Below, in pieces: positions 29,692 through 64,000 of a stretch of 64,000 nt of DNA (position 1 is its first letter; every line of letters begins with the position of its first letter). The DNA lies in the NCBI RefSeq assembly GCF_006345805.1, contig NC_043010.1, positions 60,264,001 through 60,328,000 on the forward strand. Reading direction: 5' to 3'. The notes under the pieces were generated by a model. It saw only the letters and a list, made by a program, of their open reading frames with translations. It ran no database searches and was not told the origin of the DNA. Made by a program: the position numbers and the translations under genes. The stretch is from Octopus sinensis (lineage: Eukaryota).

Positions 29692-29692
29692 T

Positions 29693-29783: not shown

Positions 29784-29784
<1 letters not shown>

Positions 29785-30583: not shown

Positions 30584-32983
30584 ATGAAATGTAATGAAAT
30601 TCTACAAATTTACCTTCTTTATGGACTGATATATTCTGTTGTACCCATGGATATCAGTTATTATGTCAAGGAAGAAGACAGTCCTCACACCTACATAGGA
30701 GACATTGCTGCTGACTCCAACTTATCACACCCTCTCACACATCAACAACACACTCTCATTACATTTACACAACTACAAAGGACAGTCGAGAGTGGTTCTC
30801 ATTTATTTAATGTCACCAACTCAGGAAAACTATACACTACTCAAACACTGGATGCTGAGTCTCTGTGTACATACAACAAGGAATGTTCCAGAATTGTTAA
30901 AGTAGCAGTGAGGAAAGGAAAAACATTTATGAAGATTTTGAAGGTGAAAATAATTATAGAAGATATTAATGATCATCAACCAGAGTTTCCATCAAACAAA
31001 ATAAAAATCAAATTTGATGAAACAGATGGGAAAGGTTCAACAAAATCAATACCAAATGCTGTTGATAAAGACATTAGTCTTCCAAATTCTAAGATAATAT
31101 ATAAACTCAAAGATAAAAGCAAAACATTCTCACTCTCCATATTTAAAGAATCTGATGGAATAAATTTACTTAAAATAATTCTAGAAGGGATGTTAGATAG
31201 AGAATTAAAAGACACATATATGTTACAGTTGATCGCTAGAGATGGGGGTTCTCCACCAAAGGAAGGTATTCTGGACATTGAAATATCTGTTATTGATGTC
31301 AATGATAACAGACCTACGTTTACACAAAAATTATATAATACCACCATCAGTGATACACATCATATATCTTCTCCTGTTTTTGTTTTATCAGCAACAGATT
31401 TAGATTCTGGTCAAAATGGAAATATTAATTATTTTTTACATAGAAATACAAATGAATATGATAAAAAGTATTTCAAATTAAATCATAAATCTGGAGAAAT
31501 TTTCACCAATGATAATTTCTTCAGAAATAAAAGAAATAAATATAAATTATATGTTGAAGCTAGGGATGGCGGAAATCCTTCATTAAGCTCCATGTCAACG
31601 TTGATTATAAATGTAATTAACAATCAAAATAATGTGCCATCTATAAATATAGATTTTGTATCACCTTTAACAAAGACTTCAACTGCTATTTCAGAAGACA
31701 GTCAAATTGGTAGTTTTATAGCTTATGTTATGGTAACTGACACTGATAGTGGACCTAATGGACAAATTAAATGTAATATTCACCATAAAATGTTCCAGCT
31801 TTCTAATATGGGTTCCAAAGAATATAAAATATTAGTGAAAGAACCTCTTGACAGAGAAACTATAGACCATTATGTTGTTTCTATTGTATGTCATGACATG
31901 GGATCACCTCCATTAAAGACTAAGAAACAGTTCTCTGTCAAAGTAACTGATGTCAATGATGTAGAACCACATTTTACCAAAGAGACATTCCAATTCCTCA
32001 CCTATGAAAACCAGAAAGTTGACTTCCCTATTGGCTTCATCAATGCTACAGACCCTGATCTTGGAGATGGAGGCCAACTTACATATTCTATCATCAATGA
32101 TAACAACAATGATAACATTCCTTTCCAACTGACAAAATATGGATTTATTTCTACATCACAACCAATAGATCGAGAAGTGAAAGACATTTATAATTTACAA
32201 GTTTTAGTGAAAGACAATGGAACACCTTCTCTCAATGACACTGCCAATATTGTTATTGAGATTCTAGATAAAAATGATAATGCTCCGTATTTTACGTTTC
32301 CTAATAATGACCCTTACAATCTCGATGTCCACTACCATCCACACAGTAAGAAGGACATCACAATTCTGAAAGCATCTGACAAAGACACTGGAAACAATGC
32401 TTTCCTCACATATGGAATACTGAGATCCAATGATAAAAACCTGTTTACAGTGAACTCACACACTGGTGTGTTATCTTTCTCTCGCACAGTTTACCAAAAT
32501 GATGCAGGAACATATGAGCTGGAGTTTATAGTGAAAGACGGTGGTACTCCAGTTCAATCAGCAACAACTGCTATCATACTAACACTGTTTGTTAGTAATG
32601 ATACATCTCCAATGTTGACTGCTGTCCACTCACAGTCTGGTAACAACCTGAATATGACTTGGATAATTATCATTGTAGCAGCAGCTGTAATACTATCTGT
32701 GGCTGTTGTAGTGTCAATAACAATGTGTGTTTTCAAATGTATTAATCACTTCAATAATTCATCTGCAGAAAAAGATAATCCAAAATTTCTCTCTCAGACT
32801 GAGATGAGACAAATACTGTATCAGACTAACAATCCTGTTGCAATAACTAGAAATGCAGAAGACATATTTGCCAGAAATCTTCAAGCAATAAATCCCAAAA
32901 GTCCTTATTATACAGAGACAGAACAACCAATAAATGAATGGAAATTCTCAACAACACCCAGGAGGCTACCACCTACTCCTCAG
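30584..32983 (+). CDS. Pcdh: Protocadherin A, large coding exon (signal peptide, EC1-EC6, TM, proximal tail); spliced protein ~876 aa
   Basis: Six cadherin repeats (DINDHQPEF, LDRE, DVNDNRP, DKNDNAP), TM WIIIIVAAAVILSVAVVVSITMCVF; acceptor tttttag at 30548, phase-0 donor cag|gtatgt. Confidence 0.96.
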
Positions 32984-33314
32984 GTATGTAAAATATAATC
33001 TATTTACATCTATAAATATGTTCATAATTTCATATATAAATATCATGTGTACAGAAGAAATGGATTGAATATATAGTTATGTATTATGAGGAAAATACAT
33101 TAATTCTGAAGTTTTCAACAAGGTTATAATTGTGATGAGTAGATATTTGTGTTTCATTATTGGGATAGATTTCATAAAGAACATCAGAATTTAGCAGTTA
33201 GTGAATAACCAGAATGAAATTCCTTATGCAATTCTTATTATATATCATAGAAAAATAATAATAGAAACCATTTGGAATAAAATGCAAAAAGCATTTGCAA
33301 GTATTTGAAAATAT

Positions 33315-33670
33315 ATGAGGGTCGGCTGAATCGTTCATAGGCTGCTCAAGATACTCTCATCAACCCCTTGCAGTTCACACTAGTCTTCCATTGGTGTTGC
33401 ATGGTCCTACTTGAGAATAGGGAGGGTGAAAAGCTTCTTCAAATCCACAGTCATGCATAGCAGCCATTGAAACCAAGAAGTTATGTACTGGAACATTGTC
33501 CTGGTGAAACAAGATCCTTTATTCAGTTTTCTTGAGCATTTAATTTTCATAGCCTTTCATAAACGCCTCAGAAAGTTGGCATAGTTCTCTCCATTGATGG
33601 TGTGGCCCCTTTGAAGATAGTCAATAAACACAGTGCCTTTTGGATCCCTTCCCTGCTGATAAAACGACCT
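33315..33670 (-). mobile_element. Degenerate mariner fragment
   Basis: tatgagggtcggctgaatcgttcataggctg TIR-like end; minus strand contains an FHQDNVPVH-like motif. Confidence 0.6.
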
Positions 33671-33679
33671 TGTCCCTCT

Positions 33680-34277
33680 TTACATTCTGAGTTTATATCC
33701 TAACATGGTACACTCTGCTGTTTATCCTTTTGGATTCAATAGAATAAAGTACTAGTAAGTCTTGGGGTTGATGCAATTGACTAACACCCTTCTTTCAAAA
33801 TTGCAGGCCGTGTACCTAAATCATAAATCATTATTATTATCTGAGGGCAGTGAATTGGTAGAATCATTAGAGCATTGGACAAAATGCTTTGTGGTATTTA
33901 GTTACAGCACATCATATTCTGATTTCAAATTCCACTGAGATCAACTTTGCCCTTCATCCTTTTGGAATGGATAAAATAAAGTACCAATCAAGTAGTGATG
34001 TTGAAGGTATTGATGAAAATCCTCTCTTGAAACCTGAGTAAAGAGTTGGAAGGTATTTTGTTTAATGTTCAAGGATTCTGCTAGGCACAAGGCCAGCAAT
34101 TTCAGGGGAAGGATTAAGCCAATTACATTGACCCCAATGCTCAACTGGTACTTATTTTATTGATCCCAAAACGACAAAAGGCAAAGACAACCTCAGTGTA
34201 TTTGAACTCAGAACATAAAGATGGATGAAATGTAGTTAAACATTTTGCCCAGTATGCTAATGATTCTGCTAGCTTAC

Positions 34278-34311
<34 letters not shown>

Positions 34312-34682
34312 TCTATTGAAGGCACAAGGCCTCAAATTTGGCGAGAGGGGACTGGTCGATTACATCAATCCCAGTATTTCATTGGTACTTAATTTATCAA
34401 CCTCGAAAGGATGAAAGGCAAAGTTGACCTTGGTGGAATTTGAACTCAGAACCTAGCAGCAGACAAAATACCTATTTCTTTACCACCCACAAGGAGATAA
34501 ACACAGAGAGGACAAACGGATTAAGTCTATTATATCGACCCCAGTGCGTAACTGGTACTTATTTAATTGACCCCAAAAGGTTGACAGGCAAAGTCGACCG
34601 TGGCAGAATTTGAACTCAGAATGTAGTGGCAGACAAAAACCACTAAGCATTTCGCCTGGCATGCTAACGATTCTGCCAGCTA
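33680..34682. mobile_element. Cluster of about five SINE copies in both orientations in intron 2 of gene A
   Basis: Repeated ttcatccttttgg / aaggatgaaaggcaaagt / atttgaactcagaa cores. Confidence 0.8.
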
Positions 34683-35080
34683 ATAATAATTATGATACTT
34701 TTCCTTTCTATTATTCATGTAACTTTAGTAACTGAGGTTATATGTAATATAATTGACCCAATATTTTCTGGAAATATACCCGATTGCATCATTTAATTCA
34801 TGCTACGTTGATTATAAAACAAGTAAAATAGCTACACTGCTGCCATTAACAGCCTTTTGATATTTTTTTTTATAAGTAATAATTTATAAATGTCAGCTCA
34901 ATCTCAATTATAACTTATAATTTTAACTATAATTCTAACTTTTAACTTTTAATTCAGTTTAACTATCAGTTATAAGGAATTAAAGCAAGATTATTTCCAC
35001 CCCTTTTTATCAGAAATTGGATTTTTTAACTGTATGTAACATGTGCAAAGTAAGTTTCCCATTTATCTTTTTTCTGAAAG

Positions 35081-35231
35081 AATTACACAAAAGACATAAC
35101 AGAGAGTTCAGGTGAACAAAAATGTTATAATGGTACATCAAACAACTTAAATACTACTCTAACTTCTCAAAAAGAACGAAATCGAGGATGGAGCGAAGGA
35201 GATATTACACAACAGACGTCTGGAGTATCAG
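35081..35231 (+). CDS. Pcdh: Protocadherin A, first cytoplasmic exon
   Basis: ttttttctgaaag|NYTKDITESSGEQKCYNGTSNNLNTTLTSQKERNRGWSEGDITQQTSGVS g|gtaatt; phase 0 in, phase 1 out. Confidence 0.85.
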
Positions 35232-35304
35232 GTAATTACAAAATGAATCAGTAGCTTCAAATTACTATCAGAAGTTTTTTAATTAACCTAAAATAAATGT
35301 AATG

Positions 35305-35432
35305 GAAAAAAATTATTACTTAATTTAAAAAAATATATTGGTCCATAAACTATCATTTCCACAGAAAAAAATTATTACTTAATTTTTAAAAAATATATTA
35401 GTGGATGAACTATCAGTTCCACAGGAAAAAAA
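35305..35432. repeat. Tandem duplication of a ~60 bp unit
   Basis: gaaaaaaattattacttaattt...ttccacag occurs twice. Confidence 0.85.
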
Positions 35433-35520
35433 AGTCATAACAAAATATGAAATATTTTCAATTCAGAAATCAACAATATATTTCAAAACTAGTCTAAGTT
35501 TTGTTTATATATATTTTCAG

Positions 35521-35600
35521 AGTACAGTAACTATCACCCAAACATACCTCCAACAGCAAAGAGCGAATATGAACAAGAAACCTATCTAGCACCGGTTTAA
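35521..35600 (+). CDS. Pcdh: Protocadherin A, last coding exon
   Basis: ttttcag|(E)YSNYHPNIPPTAKSEYEQETYLAPV*; phase matches the previous exon. Confidence 0.87.
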
Positions 35601-37061
35601 CATACATCATGTTTACTTTTCATTAATTACAGAACCACTTAGAAAATAATTTAATATAATTTAATTATGACATTATATTAAACACTACTTTAAATGTATT
35701 GAAGCTTTTTGTTTCTTGGGTTTTTTTTGGAAGATTTCTATAAAGAAAAATCCTTTTAATTATAATGAAAATCATAAAACTATTGAGAGTTTTACTGAAG
35801 CTTTTTGTTATAATCAAAAACAACAAAAATCTATATAGGTGTTACACTGATAAATATTTAACAATGCAATTTATATTTTGTAAAATAAAATGAGAGATTT
35901 GGCTTAAATTCCTAGTAGTAGCCATATCTTTTTGACAATGTCAATAAATCAATTTTCCCTCACCTTCTAAACATCAAGTTTATGGTTAAATGAAAAGTAT
36001 TTAGAATGTATTTCAAACAGAAATCCAAAAGTCTCATACAAAAAGTGACAGCTTGTGGCTACTCATTAGCCAACATCTCTCTCTCTCTCTCTCAAATTGA
36101 TAGGAGCCAAATCAACATCATCACATTTTATCCTTTGTCATTTCCTTCATGGCAGTCAACTCCCTAAGATCTGCTTCCCCCCACCGCTTTCCATTATTTC
36201 CTGGGTCTTCTCCTCTTACAGGTTCCTTCCACTTGGACTGTCTGAGGCATCTTTACCCATCTATATTTGAGAAAATGCTTGTTCAGCTTTTCGTGTAGTG
36301 AAAAATTGTAATAAAAGTATTTGAAATTGAAGCCATACAAAATGCGTTAATAAAGTAAAATTTTAGTAGCAAATTTATGAATGTATATTAGAGAATTTAC
36401 TGGATGATAAACAAACACATTATTTTATTTTATACACTTTAATGGAAAAATAGATATGACTGTCAACAATAGATATACTATCATGTAGGAAGTGTGTGTG
36501 TGTTCATGAACATGTTCACATACATTACATGAACAAAGGCATTCTGAAATACAGCTAATCTTGATATACAAAAAACATTTTCATAAATTTCCTCACAACA
36601 AAAAGAATTATAATATGATTTTAAAATCATTGTTTTTTGTTTCTAATATGATTTTGGAAAATTTTATATAAAATAAAACCATTACAATTAAAAAATACAA
36701 TTTGAATCATAAATTTAAAAAATTGAATTGATAAATTAAATTTATATATGTTTATTATCATGTAATTATTTTATTTCATAACATTAAATGTCTAAAAGAA
36801 TTTGGTGACAGATTTGTTATTCTATCAAAATACTGCATGTGTGTGTGTGTGTGTTGTACACATATACAGAGAGAAACAGATTATTAAGATAATTAAGTAT
36901 AATGAATAGATGTATTAAATTCCATAACCAAAAGGCACTGAAAAACAAAGAAAACTCTTCCACACTCCAACACATACAGTGCAGACGTACAAATACACAT
37001 ATATATACAATTACAAAGTTAAAACACAAATTCCCAAATAAAGGTTCTACTTCCTGTCATC

Positions 37062-37191
37062 TGACTCACAACTGCAGTTCATCGATATACAGCGCTAGTC
37101 ATACTATAATAGCAGTTTTAACACCAGAATGCTACACCAGGATGAACATCTCTGATCTTATATTATAGAAACAATGGATTAAACAATGAAG
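37062..37191 (+). promoter_or_regulatory. Putative promoter (AP-1 site) and non-coding exon 1 of protocadherin B
   Basis: TGACTCACAA at 37062, gcagtt near 37114, ggattaaacaatgaag|gtaagt donor. Confidence 0.7.
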
Positions 37192-38472
37192 GTAAGTCTC
37201 CCTATCTTGACATTTCCAATTTAATTCCATTTTGGTAGATGACAATTGATATTCTAAGCAAAATGTAACACAGTGTAATCTCGCATTCATTTCCACCATT
37301 CCTGAGAGTTGCTGCTACAATAGTTGCAATACAATTTTATGTAGAAGGATGACATATTTACATAGCAATCAAAACCAAACAAATTATAAATTTACATGAC
37401 AAGAAATAACTAATTATATAATCTCCTATAGTTTGGCAGAATATATTTTATACATACTGCTATTTTTGTTTAGTTGATATATAATGTATATATCTGTTTC
37501 AACTTATTAGCTGCTTGCTTGAAATTATAACTTTATCACTCGAGTGTGTGAAAAGCCAACAGGGTTTATGCTGATAATTTTGAAATTATTTTGCAATTGA
37601 AGATGAAGGTGATTTCCAACATACCAGAGAAAAAATTCATATTACTAAATTTCCCATAAAATTTAATAGATATATTTATGACACATATAATTTAAATACA
37701 GAAATTTATAATAATACACATATAAGACAATCACAAACATTTATTCGTAATTTTGTGTTATTCTCTTAAAATATAAATATATAAATTCAGGAAAATTTTG
37801 TATCTTTATTTTTAAGTAAAATATCTCCTATCAAAATTAACTTTAAAAAATAGTCACCACATAAAAATATATAATTGAGAAATTATACTTCTGAAATTTT
37901 ACAGCATTGTTGTAATGAAATTCTGCTATAGCTAATGCTATATCATTATCTCTTAATTAACATGAGTAGAAGGAAAATGGCAACCTGGCATATTTATAAA
38001 TTCCATAAAGAATTAAATCTACTGATTCTAAACATACAATGAAATTTATTTTTAATTTTAACTACTCAATTTATCACGTATATTTCTGTATTATAATTAT
38101 TATAAATTCCTTACATGTGAAATTATAAGCAATTGTTTATCTGCACACATATGCATATCCACTTGTACTTACTTATACGATATATGCATAAATACAATAT
38201 ACTATAATATACTACAACATACAGTATAATACAATATACAATATACTACAATATACAGTATAATTTTATACTAAAGGAAAATTATAAAAAGCTTTTTTCA
38301 TTGTTATCAACCAAACTACATTTTGTTTTGTAACAAACGTTTGTATTTCCCATGAAACCAAATTTACAGAAAAGTTAAACCTTATCCTTAAATATCTGTA
38401 AATAACATCAGCCTAAACAGAAAAAAAAAATTTCTAATAAAATGTACTAATTTGTCATAGCAATATTTTCCT

Positions 38473-38476
<4 letters not shown>

Positions 38477-38542
<66 letters not shown>

Positions 38543-38811
38543 CTGTACAGTGGAGGTGTATATATACAGTTGCACAGTGGAACCGTATATCCAACAAGGC
38601 GGCGAGCTGGCAGAAACGTTAGCATGCCAAGTGCAATACTTAGCAGTATTTCGTTTTTTTTTTTACGTTTTGAGTTCAAATTCCGCCGAGGTCGACTTTG
38701 TCTTTCATCCTTTCGGGATCGATAATTCAAGTACCAGTTGCACACTGGGGTCGATCTAATCGACTGGCCTCCTCCCCGCAAATTTCGGACCTTGTGCCTC
38801 AAATTGAAAAG
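38477..38811 (+). mobile_element. SINE (38596-38811) plus (TA)n tract inside a 15 bp direct repeat
   Basis: aatattttcctcctt at 38462-38476 and 38812-38826; aaggcggcgagctggcagaaacgttagc...gagttcaaattcc. Confidence 0.8.
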
Positions 38812-38841
38812 AATATTTTCCTCCTTTTGACTGGATTTCCA

Positions 38842-39551: not shown

Positions 39552-41960
39552 ATGATGATCGCAACAATGACTATGTACACACTAATGTTGTTCATTGCAT
39601 ACACAAAGCTGCCAGTTGTTATTTCTGCAAATATTGTTTACCATATCAACGAAGAAGAGAGTCCTCATGCCTATATAGGAGACATTGCTGTTGATTCTAA
39701 CTTGTCACGTTCTCTCACACATCAGCAACACGCTCTTGTTACGTTTACACAACTGCAAAGGAAAGTGTCAAGTGGCTCTCACTTATTCAATGTGACCAAC
39801 ACAGGAAAACTATACACTACTCAGACACTGGATGCTGAGTCCCTGTGTATTTACATGAAAGAATGTTTTAAAATTGTCAAAGTAGCAGTGAGGAAAGCAG
39901 TAATATTTATTAAAATATTAACGATAAAAATCATTATAGAAGATATTAATGATCATCAACCACAGTTTCCAGAAGATCAAATAAAATTAGAATTTGATGA
40001 AACTGAGGGAAAAGGTTCAACAAAATCAATACCAAATGCTGTTGATAAAGACATTGGTCTTCTCAATTCTAACATCACATATAAACTGAAAGATAAAAGT
40101 AAGAAATTCTCACTATCCACATTTAAAGGATTTGATGGAGTAAACTTACTTAAAATAACCCTAGAAGGAATGTTAGACAGAGAATTAAAAGACACTTATA
40201 AGTTACAGTTGGTGGCTAAAGACAGAGGCTCTCCAACAAAAGAAGGTATATTGAACATAGAAATATCTGTTATAGATGTTAATGATAATCAGCCACAGTT
40301 TCCCCAACAAATATACAATATCTCTATTAGTGATACACATCACATATCTACTCCAATTTTTATCTTATCAGCTACAGACTTAGACTCAGGTAAAAATGGA
40401 GATATTACATATAACTTCTATCAAAGGGCAAGTTCTTATGCTGAAAAAAATTTTAAATTAACGTCAAATGGAGAAATTTTCCTAAACGAGAACTTTTATA
40501 AAGATAGGGGACAAATTTATAAACTATATATTCAAGCCATGGATAGAGGAAGACCTCCCTTAAGTTCGACAGCAATGTTGATTATTAATGTAATTAACAA
40601 TCAAAATAATGCCCCAAATATAAACATAGATTTTGTAGCTCCTCTAACAGAGACCTCTACAACTATTTCAGAAGCAAGTCAAATTGGGAGTTTTATAGCT
40701 TACGTTATGGTCATTGACACTGATAGTGGACCTAATGGACAAATAAAATGTAATATTCATCATAAAATGTTCCGGCTTTCTAATATGGGTTCTAAAGAAT
40801 ATAAAATATTGGTGAAAGAACCTCTTGACAGAGAAACTATAGACCATTATGTTGTTTCTATTGTATGTCATGACATGGGATCACCTCCATTAAAGACTAA
40901 GAAACAGTTCTCTGTCAAAGTAACTGATGTCAATGATGTAGAACCACATTTTACCAAAGAGACATTCCAATTCCTCACCTATGAAAACCAGAAAGTTGAC
41001 TTCCCTATTGGCTTCATCAATGCTACAGACCCAGATCTGGGAGATGGAGGCCAACTTACATATTCTATCATCAATGATAACAACAATGATAACATTCCTT
41101 TCCAACTGACAAAATATGGATTTATTTCTACATCACAACCAATAGATCGAGAAGTGAAAGACATCTATAATTTACAGGTTTTAGTCAAAGACAATGGAAC
41201 GCCCTCTTTGAATAACACTGCCAACATTCTTATAGAGATTCTAGATAAAAATGACAATGCACCTTATTTTATCTTTCCTAATAATGACCCTTACAATCTC
41301 GATGTCCACTACCATCCACACAGTAAGAAGGACATCACAATTCTGAAAGCATCTGACAAAGACACTGGAAACAATGCTTTCCTCACATATGGAATACTGA
41401 GATCCAATGATAAAAACCTGTTTACAGTGAACTCACACACTGGTGTGTTATCTTTCTCTCGCACAGTCTACCAAAATGATGCAGGAACATATGAGCTGCA
41501 GTTTATAGTGAAAGACGGTGGTACTCCAGTTCAATCAGCAACAACTGCTATCATACTAACACTGTTTGTTAGTAATGATACATCTCCAATGTTGAATGCT
41601 ATCCACTCACAGTCTGATAACAACCTGAATATGACTTGGATAATTATCATTGTAGCAGCAGCTGTAATACTATCTGTGGCTGTTGTAGTGTCAATAACAA
41701 TGTGTGTTTTCAAATGTATTAATCACTTCAATAATTCATCTGCAGAAAAAGATAATCCAAAATTTCTCTCAAGGACCGAAATGAGACAAATCTTGTATCA
41801 GACTAACAATCCTGTTGCAATAACAAGAAATGCAGAAGATATATTTGCCAGAAATCTTCAAGCAATAAATCCCAAAAGTCCTTATTATACAGAGACAGAA
41901 CAACCAATAAATGAATGGAAATTCTCAACAACACCCAGGAGGCTACCACCTACTCCTCAG
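39552..41960 (+). CDS. Pcdh: Protocadherin B, large coding exon; spliced protein ~884 aa
   Basis: Six cadherin repeats and TM; acceptor tttctag at 39529; phase-0 donor cag|gtatag; true start could be a later in-frame ATG (39555 or 39567). Confidence 0.96.
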
Positions 41961-42984: not shown

Positions 42985-43141
42985 ATCTATAATAAGCAAG
43001 TTTCTGATGGGTCATGTGAACAAGGCGACAATAATAGTATTGTGACATCAAACAATCTAAGTGACACATTACCATCTCAAAAGGATCGCAACCGTGGATG
43101 GAATGAAGGAGATATTTCACATCAAACTTCAATAATATCAG
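42985..43141 (+). CDS. Pcdh: Protocadherin B, first cytoplasmic exon
   Basis: tactttcatgttag|IYNKQVSDGSCEQGDNNSIVTSNNLSDTLPSQKDRNRGWNEGDISHQTSIIS g|gtaatt. Confidence 0.87.
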
Positions 43142-43479
43142 GTAATTTGCCAAGTATTATCACTTTTACAGTGTTGAATTCTTATAAAGGCATTGGCACA
43201 GTTGTATCATAAATAAACAACTTTATAATAAAATATGAAATTGTTTCTTTATGATTCTAAATAGTTCACTAGTGAGAAAAATTTTAATCAAAAGGATTCA
43301 TAGTACAATAGTTGAGTGTTAAATATATTAAATGTTAAAGTTGAAGCAAATGGTTATTTAATTTGAACATATGGTTGATGAATTAGTTTTTTTAATATTT
43401 ATATATATATATATATATATATATTGTCTGTAAAAGACATAAATCAAAAAAAAGCACAGTCTAAGATGTAGAGCAGTAT

Positions 43480-45812: not shown

Positions 45813-45883
45813 ATATGTGTGTGCGTGTGTGTAAACATTTTCCTTTCAAAACTATTTTAAAAATACTTTTCTGTATGTTTCAG

Positions 45884-45972
45884 AATACAGTAACTACACA
45901 CCAAACATACCTCCTACACCAAAGAGTGATCATGAACAAGATACATATCTAGAACCTGTATATAAGAAATAG
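45884..45972 (+). CDS. Pcdh: Protocadherin B, last coding exon
   Basis: tttcag|(E)YSNYTPNIPPTPKSDHEQDTYLEPVYKK*. Confidence 0.88.
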
Positions 45973-49427: not shown

Positions 49428-49860
49428 AAGGTAGGGAGCTGATAGAATTGTTAGCATACCAAGCAAAATGCTTAGTGGCATTTCATCCATTTTACATTCT
49501 AAATTCAAATTCTGTCACGGTTAACTTTGTCTTTCTTCCCTTCAGGGACATTAAAAAAAGTATTGAATACTGAGATCAATGTAGCCAACTTACCCATCCC
49601 CTAAAATTGCTGGCTCTGTGCCAAAATTTGAAACCATTATTAATAATAACATAAGGTGGTGAGCTGGCAGAACCATTAGCATGCCAGGCAAAATGCTTTG
49701 CAGCATTTCATCTGTAACTGAGTTCAAATTCTGCCGAGTTTGACCTCTACATTTCAACCTTTTGGGATTGACAAAATAAGTAGCAATTGGCCACGGTGGT
49801 TGATTACATCAACTTACCTCCTTCCTCTGAAATTACTGGCCTTGTGCCAAAGTCTGAAAC
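49428..49860 (+). mobile_element. Two tandem SINE copies
   Basis: aaggtagggagctgatagaattgttagc and aaggtggtgagctggcagaaccattagc heads with ttcaaattc B-box-like motifs. Confidence 0.8.
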
Positions 49861-51520: not shown

Positions 51521-53920
51521 ATGAGTGTAATCAACACTCTGCAGCTTTACATTCTGTATGGGATAATGTATCCAGTCGTGTGCATAGAAATTATATACCA
51601 TGTCAATGAAGAAGACAGTCCACACACATATATAGGAGACATTGCTGCTGACTCCAACTTATCACACCCTCTCACACATCAACAACACACTCTCATTACA
51701 TTTACACAACTGCAAAGGAAAGTGTCAAGTGGGTCTCAATTATTCAATGTCACCAACTCAGGAAAACTCTACACTACTCAAACACTGGATGCTGAGTCTC
51801 TGTGTACATACAACAAGGAATGTTCCAGAATTGTTAAAGTAGCAGTGAGGAAAACAGGAACATTTATAAAGATATTGAAGATAAAAATAATTATAGAAGA
51901 TATCAACGATCATCAACCACAGTTTCCAGATGATCAAATTAAAATAGAGTTTTATGAGACGGATGTAAAAGGATTTTCAAAATCAATACCAAATGCTGTT
52001 GATAAAGACATTGGTCTTCTCAATTCTAACATCACATACAGACTCGATGATAAAAGCAAGAAATTCTCACTATCCATATTTAAAGGATTTGATGGAATAA
52101 ACTTACTTAAAATAACTCTAGAAGGAATGTTAGACAGAGAAGAAATTCACAGTTACATGTTACATTTAGTAGCTAAAGATGGAGGTACTCCACCAAAAGA
52201 AAGTATATTGAACATATATATTTCTGTTACAGATGTTAATGACAACCAACCAATGTTTACACAAAAATCATATAATACTACCATCACCGACACACATCAC
52301 ATATCTTCTCCTGTGATTCTTTTATCTGCAACAGATTTAGATTCTGGTCAAAATGGGAACATTACTTACTATTTACATAGAAATACAAATAAATATGCCA
52401 GAAAACATTTCAAATTAAATTCTAAAACAGGAGAAATTTTCATCAATGATAATTTCTTTAGAAATAAAGAAAATAAATATCAATTGTACATTGAAGCCAG
52501 AGATGGTGGAAATCCTTCATTAAGCTCCATGGCAATGTTAATTATTAATATCATTAACAATCAAAATAATGTTCCATCTATAAATATAGATTTTGTATCA
52601 CCTTTAACAGAGACCTCTACTGCTGTTTCAGAAGCAAGTCAAATTGGTAGTTTTATAGCTTATGTTATGGTTACTGACACTGATAGTGGACCTAATGGAC
52701 AAATTAAATGTAATATTCACCATAAAATGTTCCAGCTTTCAAATATGGGTTCTAAAGAATATAAAATATTGGTGAAAGAACCTCTTGACAGAGAAACTAT
52801 AGACCATTATGTTGTTTCTATTGTATGTCATGACATGGGATCACCTCCATTAAAGACTAAGAAACAGTTCTCTGTCAAAGTAACTGATGTCAATGATGTA
52901 GAACCACATTTTACCAAAGAGACATTCCAATTCCTCACCTATGAAAACCAGAAAGTTGACTTCCCTATTGGCTTCATCAATGCTACAGACCCTGATCTTG
53001 GAGATGGAGGCCAACTTACATATTCTATCATCAATGATAACAACAATGATAACATTCCTTTCCAACTGACAAAATATGGATTTATTTCTACATCACAACC
53101 AATAGATCGAGAAGTGAAAGACATCTATAATTTACAAGTTTTAGTCAAAGATAATGGAACACCTTCTCTGAACAACACTGCTAACATTCTTATTGAGATT
53201 CTAGATAAAAATGATAATGCACCTTATTTCATCTTTCCTAACAATGACCCTTACAATCTAGATGTCCACTACCATCCACACAGTAAGAAGGACATCACAA
53301 TTCTGAAAGCATCTGACAAAGACACTGGAAACAATGCTTTCCTCACATATGGAATACTGAGATCCAATGATAAAAACCTGTTTACAGTGAACTCACACAC
53401 TGGTGTGTTATCTTTCTCTCGCACAGTTTACCAAAATGATGCAGGAACATATGAACTGCAGTTTATAGTGAAAGACGGTGGTACTCCAGTTCAATCAGCA
53501 ACAACTGCTATCATACTAACACTGTTTGTTAGTAATGATACATCTCCAATGTTGAATGCTATCCACTCACAGTCTGATAACAACCTGAATATGACTTGGA
53601 TAATTATCATTGTAGCAGCAGCTGTAATACTATCTGTGGCTGTTGTAGTGTCCATAACAATGTGTGTTTTTAGATGTATTAATCACATCAATAATTCATC
53701 TGCAGAAAAAAATAATCCAAAATTTCTCTCTCAAACTGAGATGAGACAAATTCTGTATCAGACTAACAATCCTGTTGCAATAACTCGGAATGCAGAAGAC
53801 ATATTTGCCAGAAATCTTCAATCTATAAATCCTAAAAGCCCATATTATCCAGAGATAGACCAGTTAAGTGGTGAATGGAAATTCTCAACAACACACAGGA
53901 GACTTCCATCCATTCCACAA
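51521..53920 (+). CDS. Pcdh: Protocadherin C, large coding exon; spliced protein ~873 aa
   Basis: Six cadherin repeats and TM; acceptor ttttag at 51482; phase-0 donor caa|gtatgt (the last 27 aa of the listed ORF are intron read-through). Confidence 0.96.
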
Positions 53921-54511: not shown

Positions 54512-54725
54512 AGGGCAGTGAGCTGGCAGAAATGTTAGCACACTGGGTGAAATGCTTAACAGTATTTCACCTGTCTTTACGTTCTGAGTTCAAATGCCAC
54601 CAAGGTCGACTTTACCTTTCATCCTTTTGGGGACAATAAATTAAGTACCAGTTGTGTACTGAGGTCAATCTAATTGGCTGGCCCCCTCCCCCCAAATTTC
54701 GGGCCTCGTGCCTAGGGTAGAAAAG
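54512..54725 (+). mobile_element. SINE with a 17 bp target site duplication
   Basis: aataattgaacagacaa at 54495-54511 and 54726-54742. Confidence 0.9.
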
Positions 54726-55420
54726 AATAATTGAACAGACAATAACAGTAATACATACACATAACTAAAAAGAAAATTTCTCAACATTCAGAAGTTATTA
54801 CTTTTAAATTTTGAGAACTAATTTTTGATATCAGCAAATTAAAAATACTATAAACATTCTAGGGAGTACTGCCATAATTTTATAAAACTGACCTGCAGAA
54901 TTTTTAAGCAAAATCAATTTAATGTTCATATATACAGCAACACTGCTGTCTATTTTGTATACCATAGTATGTTAAGGTCCACAGACATAGGTATAATATA
55001 TCAGCAGCTCTGGATTTGTTGGTCACACCTAGTTATACAACCAACTATGCTGAATCAATAATGAAGCCCCAATCGATTCCTCAGTCTACTTGAAACAATA
55101 CTCAAATTTCCTTTAAATCTTTCCTACTATCTTTAAAAAGAAGTATACATTATTAATGTCATCCTACCTCACAATCAAAAACAAAAACTCAGAGTAATCA
55201 TGGCTGGAATGCCCCTTACTATAAACATACAACTGTCATAAGCTTGGACTACCAATACTACAAAAAAGGTTATTAAAGTAAATTTCCCAATTCCCATGAG
55301 AATATTCCAACTAGTTTTCTTCTAAGATGTAAAATAGAATTCATAGAAATATCATGCACCCTAATCTCTCAAATATGCATCTAATCCATGTTGTTTTTAT
55401 AATGGCTTTATAATAAAAAG

Positions 55421-55553
55421 GTTTCAGGTGGATCTTGTGATCAAATTGACAACACCAGTATTGTGACATCAAACAACCTAAGTGATACATTGCCATCTCA
55501 AAGAGATTGCAAACATGGATGGAATGAAGCTGATGTTAAACATCAGACATCAG
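55421..55553 (+). CDS. Pcdh: Protocadherin C, first cytoplasmic exon (5' boundary uncertain)
   Basis: VSGGSCDQIDNTSIVTSNNLSDTLPSQRDCKHGWNEADVKHQTS g|gtaaat; the homologous acceptor reads GG (55404-55405), next in-frame AG at 55419-55420. Confidence 0.75.
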
Positions 55554-55924: not shown

Positions 55925-56300
55925 TGTTGTTTTAACATCCACTTTTCCATGCTTACATGGGTTAGATGGAATTTGTTGAGGTAGAATTACTATACTCAGA
56001 TGCCCTTCTTGTCACCAACTCTCAACTGATTCTGGGCAAGATCATATTTCCCCATGATCAGACATGTTTTCGAGGAAGACTGGAAGCAAAGAAAAGTGTT
56101 TGAAGGATAACACTTGTTTACATCTATCCCTGCCCACCACACAAAAACATGTACAAGGGGCTTGTTTCTGTCGACCAAATCCACTCACATGCCTTTAGTT
56201 ATCCCAAGGTTGTTTTAGAAGATACTTTCCCAAGATGCTAAGCAGTGGGCCTGAGCCCAGCTCCATGTGGTTGGGAAGCAAGCTTCTTTACTGCAGATCC
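55925..56300 (-). mobile_element. Degenerate SINE
   Basis: tttaacatccacttttccatgcttacatgggttagatgg tail and atgtggttgggaagcaagcttctta head match other copies in the window. Confidence 0.7.
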
Positions 56301-56384
56301 ATTTATCTATGATAAATATAAATTGCAAGTAAACACAATATCATAAGAAAATTATAATATATTCATGTTTTTCTCTATTTTCAG

Positions 56385-56473
56385 AATACAGTAACTATAC
56401 ACCAAACATACCTCCAATACCAAAAGGTGAACATGAACAAGACACATATCTTGAACCAGTATATAAGCAGTAA
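56385..56473 (+). CDS. Pcdh: Protocadherin C, last coding exon
   Basis: ctctattttcag|(E)YSNYTPNIPPIPKGEHEQDTYLEPVYKQ*. Confidence 0.88.
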
Positions 56474-57295: not shown

Positions 57296-57418
57296 TGACT
57301 CACAAATCTATTCCGTACAGATACTGTCATTGTCAAACTACTACAGCAGCAGTTACACAGGAATACTACAAAAGAACAAATGCCTGTTATAAGAATCACA
57401 AAAGATTGAATAATTTTG
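57296..57418 (+). promoter_or_regulatory. Putative promoter (AP-1 site) and non-coding exon 1 of protocadherin D
   Basis: ctaTGACTCACAAatct at 57296, ctactacagcagcagttacacaggaa near 57351, donor g|gtaagt at 57419. Confidence 0.7.
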
Positions 57419-58055
57419 GTAAGTCACTTTGCATTGCAATTTTTCATTTAATATTTTTTTTATATATATATTTCAGCACTAATATATGAGAAATAGACAA
57501 TAAATAATACTATGTTTAATGGTAATATAACACAGAGAGGAAACTGGGAAGCTATAGAACTATGTAGCCATTACTAAGAGCAGTGGTGTAGTTACTTTAA
57601 AACAGATATTTTTGACTGCTACTGTTCTGCAAATACTGATCTGTGACTTGATTATATTTATCACATAATTTCATATATATTGTTATAATTCACATATAAC
57701 ATCATTTAATAAATTAGTTTAAACAGGGAATGCTTTTGGTATAATTATTGTTTATCAGCCACTGAAGAAGTATTTTGGAAACCGATTTCCATAGCATATA
57801 TATAGACTGCTAGTACATAATTCAAATTTCAAGATATTGAGTAATATAATTTCTTATATCATTAAATTTTTCTGTGAATATAATTATAGCCTTGAATATG
57901 AGTCTTTATTTCATCTTTCATTTATTTCATCAGCAGTGATAATCAGATATTCATACTTTAAATCTAAAGTGTTATTCACTACTAGTAATTTCTATCATTC
58001 TTAAAAAATATTAACATCATTTGCATTCCTTTTCATCTTTTCTCTCTCTATCTCT

Positions 58056-58103
<48 letters not shown>

Positions 58104-58217
58104 ATGGTGTCATTGAGACCCAAGAATGTCAGGTAATGCTGAATAAGTGCTATAGACAGACGATAGTTAAGTTCCAGATTCGGTAATATTGTGAATAAAG
58201 GGTTCAACGTCAGTGTG

Positions 58218-58360
58218 TATATATAAGACTTTTTTGTGTAATAAGAAAAAAAACGAAGGCTGTATAGATATTAGAGCATTTATATAGATGGAAGGTCTAT
58301 CTATAAATGCTCTAATATCTATACAGCCTTGGTTTTTTATCTTATTACACAAAACATTCT

Positions 58361-58367
<7 letters not shown>
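58218..58367. repeat. Foldback hairpin (~70 bp arms, ~7 nt loop)
   Basis: aaggctgtatagatattagagcatttata pairs with tataaatgctctaatatctatacagcctt. Confidence 0.9.
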
Positions 58368-58391
<24 letters not shown>

Positions 58392-58650
58392 AATATAAGA
58401 GAGTGGTCACTATATGGCTCACTCTAGCACCAGTTAATCCAATAGGTTTCAACCACAAAAATACATGTTTCCCATGAAAGTCAGTACGATTGTTAGCTCC
58501 AGGTTTCTCGGAGCACTAGGCCACTTGGTGTAGAATAGATATACTATTAAATTAGTATCTAATTCTCTCACCCTTATTAATTAATTATATATATATATAT
58601 ATATATCATCATCATCGTTTAACGTCCGTTCTCCATGCTAGCATGGGTTG

Positions 58651-58693
<43 letters not shown>

Positions 58694-59048
58694 CATACAT
58701 ACATACATACATACATACATACATACTTACATACATATATAATGTACAGCACAAAAAAAATATTTTAAAAACTGCACTTTGCACTGTTAATATAACCAGG
58801 GAACCATCTAACTTTAGATATCCTTCGAGAAACATATCCAAACAAAACAATAAAAAGACAAGTACATGACAATATGTTTTGCTTATATTTTGTCACTTTT
58901 GTTTTGTTCACTATTATAAATAGATTCAAGTTTCTTTATTTTCATCTTTAGTTAAATGACAACATTCATTTATAATGCATATTTACTATTAACCTGTGTC
59001 TGTTTTTTTAAATGTTGATGATTTTATGTATACATATACATATATACA

Positions 59049-59577
<529 letters not shown>

Positions 59578-60021
59578 ATACTCATACACACACACACACG
59601 CACATATATATGAAGTAATAAAAATAATAATCCTTGGATGGAATCATGAATATTTTGATGTATTACTACATGCATTTCCACAAATTACATTTTTCTTAAG
59701 ATCATAATCTGTATTCCTGGGATGATCACCCAGTGTTCATGGATACTATGGACTGCACTGTAATCATTCCAGGAACATGGACTAAGTCTTAAGAAACATG
59801 TCATTTGTGGAAACACATAACAATGCATTAAAATAGTTATAAATTCCATCCAAGGATTATTATTGTTATTACTATATTTATCCTACAGTAAATCGACACA
59901 GCTTTATGCAACTCTGAAAAACTGGTATCACCAGTCAACATTATTAGGCTGTAGCCAGCATAATAAAATAGGAGCTTTTTATATACATATTCAAAATGGT
60001 TTCTGTAAACAAACTTTAAGG

Positions 60022-60068
<47 letters not shown>

Positions 60069-60789
60069 GGTAGTGTTTATCCCCACTTTAACGTGGCTAT
60101 TCTGTAAGAGATGATGAACTGCAATTTTAAGCCCAGGAAGATATCCCTTCCAGCTCATTTATTGAATGTCACACACACGTGCACACAAACAAACAAGCAC
60201 AGAAAAGCAATACTCTGCAAAAAAAAGCATAGAGCTATCTGCGAAACAAAGTAAGGAGTTTGAAGGGTAGAATCCCCTCCCAGAAAAAATGGATTGCATT
60301 AAAATTTTACATGTATATACGTAAAATTATAAAATGTACATACAAATATACATGTATATGCATAAAATTTTATCTCAATCTTGTTTTCTGAGAGGGGCTT
60401 CTGCTCCTCAAACTCCTTACTTCATTTCTTACATATCTTTATGGTTTTTTGGATGGCAGTACTTTTGTGTGCATGTATATATATATATATATATACAAAA
60501 TCTGTGGAAAAAGACAAAGAGTAGCAAATTGAGGTCATTAATTTGTGGGGAGAGAATGGGGAGGAAATGAACCAGGTGCCAGGGTGTGGCTAAGATTTTT
60601 AGTAGTGAATGGAATTGGTAGTATGATGTGTGTGTATATATATGAATAATTATAAACTTTTTTAAAAAGAAGCATAATTTCAAAAAGATCTCTAATTATG
60701 AATTATCATTACTTTATTGCTACTGGATCAGTAAAACTGAGGAATTTAATGTTGAAGTGCAAAATTACATATTGTAAAGCACCTGGATT

Positions 60790-61100
60790 ATATTTTTAGT
60801 ATTTGTGAAAATTTCACTTTGTTGAGCTTCATAATGTGCCATAACTATAGTTTACTGAATTATTTCTCACATATAGAGAACACTGCAACAAAATTGTATC
60901 CATAACTTATTACTCAATGGTCACCAAAGTTCAATAGACATTTAAAAAAAAAATCTATGAATTAGTATAGGATTTTTTTTTAATATTTGCTGAAAATTTT
61001 AGAAGCACCTACAGCAATGCTGGCTGTAGCTGTTTTAGGTGTTTCTCACATATAGAGAACACTGCAACCGTATAAGGAAACATGCTCTAGATTCAACTAT
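60790..61100. repeat. Diverged ~180 bp tandem duplication
   Basis: tttctcacatatagagaacactgcaac occurs at ~60864 and ~61042 with similar flanks. Confidence 0.7.
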
Positions 61101-61520
61101 GAATCCCAAAGAGATATTGCAATGTGTACAAAATAATTTTTCATGTCAGACAGAAGTTTTGTATTTTCAAGCGCTAAACCAACATGTAGCTGCCATAAGG
61201 TTGATTGACTACAACCATACTATATGTTTTTGGCTAAAGCTTTAGATGTTCATTTTATATTTTAGCGAATAATTTATTATGTTAAATCAGAATTATTTTC
61301 ATTGAGGAAAAAAATAGTGAAAACCAGCACAAACTCAGTCAGTTATCATTATTTCATTACGTAACTACTCATCAATTTCAAATAAAAACTGTGTAATACA
61401 GAGTCGCATTATTTTGAAGACGATTCCAAAATTTTAATAGAAATGTTCAATTGGTTTCACCGACTTTAGAATCCATTCTATCGCTGATCATCTTAAAAGA
61501 AATATACGAAAACTGAGGAG

Positions 61521-61532
61521 GGGGAACAACTC
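61521..61532 (+). promoter_or_regulatory. GGGRRRYAACTC motif in intron 1 of gene D
   Basis: ggggaacaactc in a CpG-retaining patch; function inferred only. Confidence 0.35.
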
Positions 61533-61884
61533 TAATGTTTTTCAAGATCCTTAGCGTTATTTAATCTTGTAGATTATCTGATAAAATATCTATTGCAATA
61601 ACTATTAACTTATTTTCATTTAGATAACAACCTCCAAGCATGTATAAAGTTTTTACTTCAAGATATTACCTCAAGTCTTAATTTTTATAAACTATATCAA
61701 ATATTTCAGGATGTCACAAATGCTTCAAGATAATAACTGGATAAATTAAATGCATTTGGCTTTTAAAGAAACATGTATTTTGCATATATAAAACCTTTTA
61801 TATATATAAAACTGATGAAATCAAATATATGTAGCATTAATTCAAAATGATTTTTCTTTTTTAGAACAATATTCATGACAAATA

Positions 61885-64000
61885 ATGAATTACAACAATG
61901 ATTATAATCAACACATAAAATTTTACTTTCTCTATGGATTGATGTATACTGTAGTTTCTATAGACATTACTTACTATGTCAAGGAAGAAGATAGTCCTCA
62001 CACCTATATAGGAGACATTTCCGTTGACTCCAACTTATCACACCCTCTCACACATCAACAACACACTCTCATTACATTTACACAACTACAAAGGACAGTC
62101 GAGAGTGGTTCTCATTTATTTAATGTCACCAACTCAGGAAAACTATACACTACTCAAACACTGGATGCTGAGTCTCTGTGTACATACAACAAGGAATGTT
62201 CCAGAATAGTTAAGGTGGCAGTGAGGAAAGCAGGAACATTTATAAAGATATTGAAGATAAAAATAATTATAGAAGATATTAATGACCACCAGCCAGAGTT
62301 TCCTCAAAAGCAAATAAAATTACAGTTTGATGAATATTACAGCAAAGGAACTGCAAAATCAATACCAAATGCTGTTGATAAAGACATTAGTCTTCCAAAT
62401 TCTAAGATAATATATAAACTCAAAGATAAAAGCAAAACATTCTCACTCTCCATATTTAAAGAATCTGATGGAATAAGTTTACTTAAAATAATTCTAGAAG
62501 GAATGTTAGATAGAGAATTAAAAGACACTTATATGTTACAGTTGATGGCTAGAGATGGAGGTTCTCCACCAAAAGAAGGTATTCTGGACATTGAAATATC
62601 TGTTATTGATGTCAATGATAACAGACCTACGTTTACACAAAAATTATATAATACCACCATCAGTGATACACATCATATATCTTCTCCTGTTTTTGTTTTA
62701 TCAGCAACAGATTTAGATTCTGGTCAAAATGGAAATATTAATTATTTTTTACATAGAAATACAAATGAATATGATAAAAAGTATTTCAAATTAAATCATA
62801 AATCTGGAGAAATCTTCATCAATGATAATTTCTTTAGAAATAAGGAAAGTAAATACCAGTTATATGTTGGAGCTAGGGATGGCGGAAATCCTTCATTAAG
62901 CTCCATGTCAACGTTGATTATAAATGTAATTAACAATCAAAATAATGTGCCATCTATAAATATAGATTTTGTATCACCTTTAACAAAGACTTCTACTGCT
63001 ATCTCAGAAGCAAGTAAAATTGGAAGTTTTATAGCTTATGTTATGGTCACTGACACTGATAGAGGACCTAATGGACAAATTAAATGTAATATTCACCATA
63101 AAATGTTCCAGCTTTCTAATATGGGTTCTAAAGAATATAAAATATTGGTGAAAGAACCTCTGGACAGAGAAACTATAGACCATTATGTTGTTTCTATTGT
63201 ATGTCATGACATGGGATCACCTCCATTAAAGACTAAGAAACAGTTCTCTGTCAAAGTAACTGATGTCAATGATGTAGAACCACATTTTACCAAAGAGACA
63301 TTCCAATTCCTCACCTATGAAAACCAGAAAGTTGACTTCCCTATTGGCTTCATCAATGCTACAGACCCTGATCTTGGAGATGGAGGCCAACTTACATATT
63401 CTATCATCAATGATAACAACAATGATAACATTCCTTTCCAACTGACAAAATATGGATTTATTTCTACATCACAACCAATAGATCGAGAAGTGAAAGACAT
63501 CTATAATTTACAGGTTTTAGTCAAAGATAATGGAACACCTTCTCTGAATAACACTGCCAACATTCTTATAGAGATTCTAGATAAAAATGATAATGCTCCG
63601 TATTTTACACTTCCTAATAATGACCCTTACAATCTAGATGTCCACTACCATCCACACAGTAAGAAGGACATCACAATTTTGAAAGCATCTGACAAAGACA
63701 CTGGAAACAATGCTTTCCTCACATATGGAATACTGAGATCCAATGATAAAAACCTGTTTACAGTGAACTCACACACTGGTGTGTTATCTTTCTCTCGCAC
63801 AGTCTACCAAAATGATGCAGGAACATATGAGCTGCAGTTTATAGTGAAAGACGGTGGTACTCCAGTTCAATCAGCAACAACTGCTATCATACTAACACTG
63901 TTTGTTAGTAACGATACATCTCCAATGTTGACTGCTATCCACTCACAGTCTGATAACAACCTGGATATGACTTGGATAATTATCATTGTAGCAGCAGCTG
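61885..64000 (+). CDS. Pcdh: Protocadherin D, large coding exon, 3'-truncated by the window edge (absent from the ORF track)
   Basis: Manual translation from ATG 61885: MNYNNDYNQHIKFYFLYGLMYTVVSIDITYYVKEEDSPHTYIGDI... open through EC1-EC6 to DMTWIIIIVAAA; acceptor ttttag at 61864. Confidence 0.9.
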   Translation, partial: MNYNNDYNQHIKFYFLYGLMYTVVSIDITYYVKEEDSPHTYIGDISVDSNLSHPLTHQQHTLITFTQLQRTVESGSHLFNVTNSGKLYTTQTLDAESLCTYNKECSRIVKVAVRKAGTFIKILKIKIIIEDINDHQPEFPQKQIKLQFDEYYSKGTAKSIPNAVDKDISLPNSKIIYKLKDKSKTFSLSIFKESDGISLLKIILEGMLDRELKDTYMLQLMARDGGSPPKEGILDIEISVIDVNDNRPTFTQKLYNTTISDTHHISSPVFVLSATDLDSGQNGNINYFLHRNTNEYDKKYFKLNHKSGEIFINDNFFRNKESKYQLYVGARDGGNPSLSSMSTLIINVINNQNNVPSINIDFVSPLTKTSTAISEASKIGSFIAYVMVTDTDRGPNGQIKCNIHHKMFQLSNMGSKEYKILVKEPLDRETIDHYVVSIVCHDMGSPPLKTKKQFSVKVTDVNDVEPHFTKETFQFLTYENQKVDFPIGFINATDPDLGDGGQLTYSIINDNNNDNIPFQLTKYGFISTSQPIDREVKDIYNLQVLVKDNGTPSLNNTANILIEILDKNDNAPYFTLPNNDPYNLDVHYHPHSKKDITILKASDKDTGNNAFLTYGILRSNDKNLFTVNSHTGVLSFSRTVYQNDAGTYELQFIVKDGGTPVQSATTAIILTLFVSNDTSPMLTAIHSQSDNNLDMTWIIIIVAAA

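Follow-up and report, generated by a model that had tools for sequence, protein, structure and literature searches.

Probable short-tract gene conversion in the large exons of a tandem protocadherin array of Octopus sinensis

The 64,000-nt stretch of Octopus sinensis DNA analysed here (the window; C14:60264001-60328000 of the 2.72-Gb genome) carries four protocadherin genes, called A, B, C, and D, all on the + strand. They are the first four of 12 tandem + strand copies located at 60.296-60.427 Mb, spaced by 8-16 kb and 97-100% identical to a 351-nt probe from the fourth and fifth extracellular cadherin repeats (EC4/EC5), and a second protocadherin group, 92-94% identical to this probe, lies from 60.498 Mb on (the best 40 of the 206 candidates found with the probe were scored). 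The large exons of A-D are very probably mosaics, produced as array copies repeatedly overwrote short tracts of one another (interlocus gene conversion). In the proposed mechanism, conversion, frequent in the EC1 core and over the stretch between mid-EC4 and the transmembrane segment (TM), would keep 12 to more than 30 genes near-identical; in late EC1, EC2, and EC3 conversion would be rarer or selected against, leaving old islands of 16-180 nt, which would occasionally be transferred between copies. Besides A-D, the comparison draws on the eight genes E-L, which complete the sub-array, and on M-O, three genes from the second group.

Two kinds of evidence carry this conclusion: the nearest paralog switches along the exon beyond what one tree allows, and tracts with a synonymous divergence (dS) near zero lie beside other exons, introns, and flanks that are old. 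Conversion is favoured, since introns should be alike after recent duplication or unequal crossing-over, and selection on the protein would spare synonymous differences. The exons in question are the following.

30584..32983, + strand: large coding exon of A, comprising the signal peptide, EC1-EC6, TM, and the start of the cytoplasmic tail
39552..41960, + strand: large coding exon of B, the most divergent of the four in EC1-EC3, with 152 private sites
51521..53920, + strand: large coding exon of C
61885..64000, + strand: large coding exon of D, continuing past the end of the window
A 35084..35248, B 42985-43158, C 55406-55552, + strand: exon 2, not homogenised (dS 0.9-1.5)
A 35508..35597 (ending ...YLAPV), B 45880-45960, C 56381-56461, + strand: exon 3 (dS 0.5-0.7)

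The large exon of A is preceded by an acceptor AG ending at 30548 and followed by the donor Q|GTATG after 32983. Similarity between the paralogs is bounded by the polypyrimidine-AG acceptor, about 20-40 nt ahead of the ATG, and by the Q|GTAT donor; the open reading frames (ORFs) are 62-100% identical, and beyond the splice sites the flanks are identical in about 35-65%, i.e., unalignable. A separate pair of small exons, 2 and 3, follows the large exon of A, of B, and of C within 1-4 kb downstream, with joins matching those of annotated relatives, and there are therefore no shared constant exons. The available part of PMC9068888 likewise describes cephalopod protocadherin genes without shared constant exons.

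Within the large exon, synonymous divergence changes strongly from repeat to repeat. Between A and B, dS is 0.56 in EC1, 0.47 in EC2, 0.97 in EC3, 0.24 in EC4, 0.18 in EC5, and 0.05 in EC6. Between A and N it amounts to 0.088 in EC1, 1.64 in EC2-3, and 0 in EC5, and between A and F to 0.66 in EC1 and 0.165 in EC2-3. Frames are intact in 9 of the 12 sub-array members (dN/dS, the ratio of non-synonymous to synonymous divergence, 0.1-0.4), and among these nine paralogs the proportion of synonymous differences (pS) is 0.38, 0.37, and 0.46 in EC1-3, and 0.16, 0.12, and 0.08 in EC4-6. In windows, pS is 0.3-0.6 from the signal peptide to EC3, falls to 0.02-0.07 at about amino acids (aa) 400-520 and in EC6-TM, and is higher again in the tail. 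Two features stand out in the second half of the exon.

A 31854..32783, B 40831-41761, C 52791-53721, D 63167 past the window end, + strand: homogenised block, mid-EC4 through TM, 98-100% identical among 12 members
A 32184-32329, B 41161-41306, C 53121-53266, D 63497-63642, + strand: synonymous-only island at the EC5/EC6 border

The EC5/EC6 island, 145 nt long and located within the homogenised block, has a pS of 0.27-0.35 and a proportion of non-synonymous differences (pN) of only 0.01-0.02. Its haplotypes are shared across the array, with C equal to F (0 mismatches), A close to M, N, and O, and D close to E and G. Outside their islands A, D, E, F, and G, which form a young group, diverge by 1.1-2.0%, and the islands, of 16-182 nt, are 10-35% divergent. 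As to whether conversion here is homogenising or DIVERSIFYING, the overall outcome seems to be chiefly homogenisation, from which short old islands remain. Conversion mediated by cDNA, considered for the exon-bounded homology, was rejected, since it should have homogenised exons 2-3 and the tail of the large exon as well, and these have stayed distinct.

For the pair A and D, mismatches were located at the DNA level and numbered from the ATG of A. The earlier note had described the two genes as almost identical over about 62020-62210 and 62356-62810 and sharply different in between, and the measured limits agree with this. There are 0 mismatches over the 183 nt of nt 128-310 (D 62025-62207), 33 of 146 nt differ in nt 311-456 (D 62208-62353), and only 6 of 460 differ in nt 457-916 (D 62354-62813), with 11 mismatches following in nt 917-973. 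The peptides quoted in that description are all present in A-D. Along the exon the A-D dS is 0 (0/42.7 synonymous sites), then 0.79 in the island, and then 0.044. In a GENECONV-like permutation, global p values of the A-D fragments are below 0.0005 for nt 681-908 (0/2000) and 0.0015 for nt 131-307. The segments concerned, together with a second island, are listed below.

30712..30894, + strand: EC1 core of A, identical to D 62025-62207 and 96-99% identical to EC1 of 27 genes
62025..62207, + strand: EC1 core of D, 0 mismatches to A
62208..62353, + strand: private island of D, comprising the last EC1 strand, the EC1-EC2 linker, and the first EC2 strand; PQKQIKLQFDEYYSKGTA
31501..31557, + strand: private island of A in EC3, dS 0.94-1.0 versus D and E; IFTNDNFFRNKRNKYKLYVE

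For the 183-nt EC1 core common to A and D, sequences of 96-99% identity occur in 27 genes (C14:60.497-60.728 Mb), in another gene at 59.988 Mb, and, on two unplaced contigs, as 8 copies; its identity is 99% in E and 95% in I. The best 40 of the 118 candidates found with the EC1 core were scored, and all 40 are at least 95% identical. Being common to sub-arrays more than 170 kb apart, the EC1 core must therefore itself have been homogenised, and the frequency of this type in the downstream sub-array suggests the latter as the donor.

The synonymous divergence of the D island is old. Its dS versus A, E, and B is 0.53-0.90 with a dN/dS of 0.16-0.39, and a search for its donor gave no match above 84% identity anywhere in the assembly. 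The first part of the island (nt 334-362) is of the majority type, common to C, H, and B, and it is A and E that carry the M/N type there. Given its old dS and the lack of a donor, the island more likely escaped the homogenisation which overwrote its flanks, and in the simplest reading it is old sequence left between nested conversion tracts ending at different points. Exchange around the sharply different A/D segment is thus borne out in the flanks, but not the view of the segment itself as freshly imported or fast-evolving. The peptide of the EC3 island of A is identical in P0006, an Octopus vulgaris-named ortholog of E: at aa 306-325 this protein has 0 mismatches to A and 4 to E, and over aa 1-193 it matches E with 0-1 differences per segment. 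Transfer of islands from one copy or lineage to another can therefore occur as well.

Comparison with the wider array makes the mosaic structure unambiguous. In a sliding 90-nt comparison of the EC1 core, A, D, and E have 0-4 mismatches to M, N, and O, and F and G differ at 11-21 positions; from about nt 340 the relationship is reversed, with 0-5 mismatches of A, D, and E to F and G, and 27-48 to M, N, and O. In a test similar to 3SEQ this structure of A and D, with EC1 like M/N/O and EC2-3 like F/G, gives p values of 1e-27 to 1e-33, and of 2e-11 to 1e-10 when only synonymous sites are used. Among the ordered triplets of 14 paralogs, 176 of 624 pass the Bonferroni threshold of 0.01. The pairwise homoplasy index (PHI) of EC1-EC3 is not reached in any of 2000 permutations (0/2000), either for the nine intact paralogs (z -9.2) or for 12 paralogs (z -11.1). 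Maximum likelihood trees of the 14 paralogs were built for EC1, EC2, EC3, EC4-6, and TM-tail, and each alignment was confronted with the other four trees; the approximately unbiased (AU) test rejected the foreign trees in 20/20 cases (p<=0.001). In the null control, 40 single-tree simulations with blockwise rate variation, 0/240 tests reached p<1e-3. The AU result, the triplets, and the islands of 16-182 nt together corroborate the proposal, made from the sequence of the window, that short tracts are exchanged between paralogs inside EC1-EC3.

C shows an old relationship to B in EC2. Its EC1 is nearer to A, D, and E (dS 0.21) than to B (0.51), its EC2 nearer to B (0.38) than to A (0.68), and its EC3 is far from B (1.33) as compared with I and A (0.44-0.48); in nucleotide distance the closest EC3 sequences are those of I and H (11-13%), with A and D at 15%.

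51881..52248, + strand: relatively B-like EC2 of C, flanked by A/D/E-like EC1 and I/H/A-like EC3; an old relationship

In the 3SEQ-like exact test among A-D, the exact p routine of which was checked against permutation, C comes out as A/D-like sequence into which a B-like tract is set at nt 360/389-727 (p=6e-8, and 1.4e-6 when multiplied by the 24 tests), with limits near the EC1-EC2 and EC2-EC3 linkers. The signal is borne mostly by non-synonymous sites and is not significant on synonymous sites alone (p=0.04-0.17). Single B-C patches, RKVSSGS, QPQFP.DQIK, and DIGLLNSNITY, have global p values of 0.15-0.65 in the GENECONV-like permutation of A-D. In the mosaic of C postulated in the earlier note, the A/D-like EC1 and the B-like EC2 tract hold; the individual B-type patches do not, nor does the tract on synonymous sites alone. 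The supposed return of C to an A/D-type EC3 is right as to similarity, although the nearest relatives are I and H instead, and EC3 of B, described as unique among the four genes, is not so in the array, where it groups with J, K, and L at a distance of 20-25%.

The four genes taken alone have 441 variable sites, 83 of them quartet-informative: 54 support AD|BC, 18 AB|CD, and 11 AC|BD. The cytoplasmic tail supports AB|CD in 10/10 quartet sites, and in the GENECONV-like permutation the A-B tail fragment at nt 2286-2399 has a global p<0.0005 (0/2000); two A-C fragments reach p=0.02.

32834..32983, + strand: cytoplasmic tail of the large exon of A, with the topology switch to AB|CD

PHI for the whole coding sequence of A-D is not reached in any permutation (0/2000). 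The topology conflict lies in the tail, and accordingly PHI for these four genes is significant for the whole exon and not for EC1-EC3, where 361/2000 permutations reach the observed value. A single topology nearly suffices for EC1-EC3 of A-D (AD|BC in 47/55 quartet sites, with 5 and 3 for AB|CD and AC|BD), but is rejected with 14 paralogs. The fragment and triplet tests use the order of sites and not topology.

The near-uniform EC1-EC3 quartet and the non-significant PHI of that region weigh against conversion as the source of the mosaics, and several other points are to be set beside them. In the Shimodaira-Hasegawa test a single combination, that of the EC3 tree with the EC2 alignment, is not rejected (p 0.239). 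The G+C content at third codon positions, expected to rise under biased conversion, is raised in EC1, EC5, and EC6 (0.28-0.35) and not in the homogenised EC4 (0.19-0.22). No annotated orthologs of A, C, and D were found in other species, the best EC1-3 matches in the ortholog search being 82% for C and 91% for D; orthologs, at the protein level only, were found for B, E, F, H, and K. Logan contigs cover the exon in pieces of 60-350 nt, none of which bridges an island border with 31 nt on each side; these contigs break where paralogs share words, so the mosaics are not phased on single molecules. Moreover, an island may have been either kept or imported, and the putative link of the islands to binding specificity is drawn by analogy.

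A different account of the same exchange is that conversion in EC1-EC3 chiefly generates diversity, shuffling ready-made specificity cassettes into new recognition codes. It would be in line with the intact chimeric frames of A, D, and E, with the composition of C (A/E-like EC1, B-like EC2, and I/H-like EC3, with tract limits near the interrepeat linkers), and with the occurrence of the EC3 island of A in P0006, the ortholog of a different paralog. Nevertheless, at a 4% threshold EC1-EC3 segments fall into 8-14 classes among 15 copies, most of them private to one gene, which is not a small set of reused cassettes; recently exchanged tracts have increased the similarity among A, D, E, F, and G; the D island is without a donor; and the B-like tract of C loses significance on synonymous sites. 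A chiefly diversifying role, judged from sequence patterns, is thus rather unlikely, and homogenising conversion that leaves old islands accounts better for these data.

An artefact of assembly or polishing, in which near-identical copies were mis-joined or 'corrected' with reads of other copies, would also yield mosaics and identity, both of them false. The array is a difficult one: genes of the neighbouring sub-array recur on two unplaced contigs, the frame is shifted by 1 bp in G and in H where the O. vulgaris-named ortholog of H is intact, and the short exon contigs give no long-range read support. However, O. vulgaris-named proteins of other assemblies follow K, H, F, and B from end to end, differing per segment by 0-2 aa from K and by 0-4 aa from H and from F, and the identity of EC4-EC6 recurs in them. 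In P0019, the O. vulgaris-named ortholog of B, there are 0-1 aa differences per segment, except that 7 of about 11 differences fall in aa 104-153, a stretch from the end of EC1 to the first EC2 strand which is the same region as the D island. Contigs assembled from runs of several studies, under other organism codes, contain the D island (0-2 differences per 85-109 nt) and both its flanks, and 1.5-kb DNA contigs join the unique upstream flank of D to EC1. With, in addition, nine of the 12 frames intact and a dN/dS of 0.1-0.4, an artefact is very unlikely. As a separate observation on B, the differences of P0023, its O. bimaculoides-named ortholog, also lie mostly in aa 104-153, and this stretch is closest to C, not B.

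Still less probable is an origin of the large exons by unequal crossing-over or recent tandem duplication, which would give hybrid genes with single breakpoints. Head-to-tail tandem arrays do favour unequal exchange, and small distances between octopus protocadherins have been read as a burst of duplication 8-14 million years ago (Ma), dated from Jukes-Cantor distances (PMC9795677, in the available text of which 'gene conversion' occurs 0 times). Yet pairs 100% identical over hundreds of nucleotides become unalignable just beyond the splice sites, each gene has its own old exons 2-3, A and D switch at least four times within 1 kb, and more than 170 kb separates the genes from their EC1 donors. 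The absence of any exchange, with one gene tree, rates and constraints varying along the exon, and convergent amino-acid changes, fits the mostly non-synonymous C/B signal and the nearly tree-like A-D quartet in EC1-3, but is hardly tenable in view of the synonymous-only tests for A and D (p about 1e-10), dS of 0 beside 0.8 within one pair, the foreign segment trees rejected by the AU test, and the clean blockwise-rate simulations.

As for function, pN between the paralogs peaks at aa 281-300 (0.233) and aa 131-150 (0.178), and no 20-codon window has a pN/pS above 0.64. The first peak corresponds to the EC3 Phe-X12-Phe loop (YFLHRNTNEYDKKYF). An AlphaFold model of the EC1-4 monomer based on the 12-paralog alignment has a mean predicted local distance difference test score (pLDDT) of 65, with EC1 below 50, and a predicted template modelling score (pTM) of 0.36; the loop, predicted with a short helix, lies in one of the better parts of this otherwise poor model. 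In vertebrate clustered protocadherins (Pcdhs), according to the available part of PMC5001838, specificity resides in EC2/EC3 loops, including the EC3 Phe-X10-Phe loop, affinity without selectivity comes from EC1/EC4, and an origin of the antiparallel EC1-4 dimer before the protocadherin families split is argued for. By analogy with the dimer as described there, the variable EC2/EC3 of the octopus genes would correspond to the specificity regions, and the non-selective EC1/EC4 contact would have its counterpart in the homogenised EC4 and EC1 core. The protected islands would then mark determinants of homophilic specificity, including the EC3 Phe-X12-Phe loop and the first EC2 strand.

The octopus array resembles the vertebrate clusters in having tandem large exons that code for the ectodomain and TM. 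In those clusters conversion is domain-restricted, with dS lowest in EC5-6 and highest in EC2-3, the least converted repeats (PMC4978886, summarising Noonan et al. 2004); in the octopus, similarly, dS is low in EC5-EC6 and high in EC2-EC3, and EC2-3 hold the phylogenetic signal and, presumably, the specificity. The two systems differ in that the octopus genes have their own 3' exons instead of shared constant ones, that the expansion took place independently in a mollusc, that the octopus EC1 core is homogenised too, even between sub-arrays, and that exchange is demonstrable inside EC1-EC3 itself. The array agrees with those reported from cephalopods in the available parts of PMC9068888 and PMC6339937, which describe the same family, chromosome-scale arrays, and like-oriented multi-exon genes. 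In these parts, which contain neither a test nor a domain map nor an analysis of tracts, gene conversion is raised only as a possible cause of the similarity of cephalopod paralogs (PMC6339937, PMC9068888); the present analysis goes beyond them in that conversion is tested, mapped to domains, and contrasted with exons 2-3 and introns that are old. The literature searched yielded no study of cephalopod protocadherin conversion at the level of domains or mosaics; it did not extend to subscription papers and supplements.

The frames from which the four genes were recognised code for 807, 808, 830, and more than 707 aa.

30575-32998, + strand: ORF A, 807 aa
39540-41966, + strand: ORF B, 808 aa
51512-54004, + strand: ORF C, 830 aa
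61879 past 64000, + strand: ORF D, >707 aa in the window; the complete frame, of 818 aa (locus L001), crosses the window end

All four have an N-terminal Cadherin_2 domain (E 2e-9 to 2e-6) and five Cadherin repeats (E about 1e-74) in Pfam. The nearest solved structures are those of protocadherin EC1-6 (6vg1, 2e-85), Pcdh gammaB4 (6e6b), and Pcdh10 (6vg4). A hydrophobic segment, WIIIIVAAAVILSVAVVVSI, found in A, B, and C, is a candidate TM. Judged by these domains and the hydrophobic segment, A-D are assigned to the six-repeat protocadherins (delta-2/clustered-like), a catenin-binding tail not having been specifically searched for. Contigs of two runs guessed to be RNA depart from the genome at 61860, with 255 unmatched letters, next to the acceptor of D (AG ending at 61864), and DNA contigs continue across this point; the departure is consistent with a spliced 5' exon ahead of the large exon of D.

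Several further observations concern the array. Paralog L is degenerate. The frames of G (L004, C14:60361100-60364700) and H (L005, C14:60376100-60379600) are each broken by a 1-bp deletion; in P0008, the O. vulgaris-named H ortholog, the frame is unbroken, and G and H are either young pseudogenes or reflect assembly indels. The unplaced contigs C11541 and C11250 carry near-identical copies of the neighbouring sub-array at matching offsets and are probably haplotigs or unresolved duplicates. Upstream of A, at 19480-21444 (+ strand), lies a decayed fifth protocadherin copy, frameshifted and spread over three frames, with an EC3 fragment (about 51% aa identity) and an EC4-to-tail part 84-90% like A-D but no EC1-EC2; a possible remnant of its exon 3 is found at 23187-23325. 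Introns and intergenic DNA of the array contain, on both strands, a dispersed repeat of about 140-200 nt resembling a short interspersed element, with copies 72-84% identical (11826-11992, 34084-34249, 34355-34451, 38662-38798, 49463-49641, and 54550-54712). Two perfect microsatellites lie ahead of genes of the window: (TTCT)23 at 29692-29784 precedes A by about 800 nt, and (AT)52 at 59472-59575 precedes D by about 2.3 kb.

The expansions of octopus and vertebrate protocadherins are a textbook case of convergence toward large nervous systems. The octopus case is a convergent counterpart of the known domain-restricted conversion, and domain-partitioned conversion in the octopus arrays would carry the convergence from gene number to evolutionary mechanism. 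It also calls for caution, since dating of expansions from distances mixes converted and unconverted sequence, with dS ranging from 0 to more than 1 within one pair; given these dS contrasts, the distances behind the 8-14 Ma date, as presented in the available part of PMC9795677, appear deflated. Tentatively, and with somewhat less than even confidence, it may be proposed that octopus arrays independently evolved a vertebrate-like division of labour, in which the EC1 core and EC4-TM are kept uniform, selection-shielded islands of 16-180 nt in late EC1, EC2, and EC3, the EC3 Phe-X12-Phe loop among them, form a map of the recognition code, and the 8-14 Ma burst is largely an artefact of conversion. 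If this division of labour is real, the code of cell recognition in the octopus could therefore be mapped by reading these unconverted islands directly in the genome, with D 62208-62353, A 31501-31557, and the EC3 Phe-X12-Phe loop as candidate specificity determinants.

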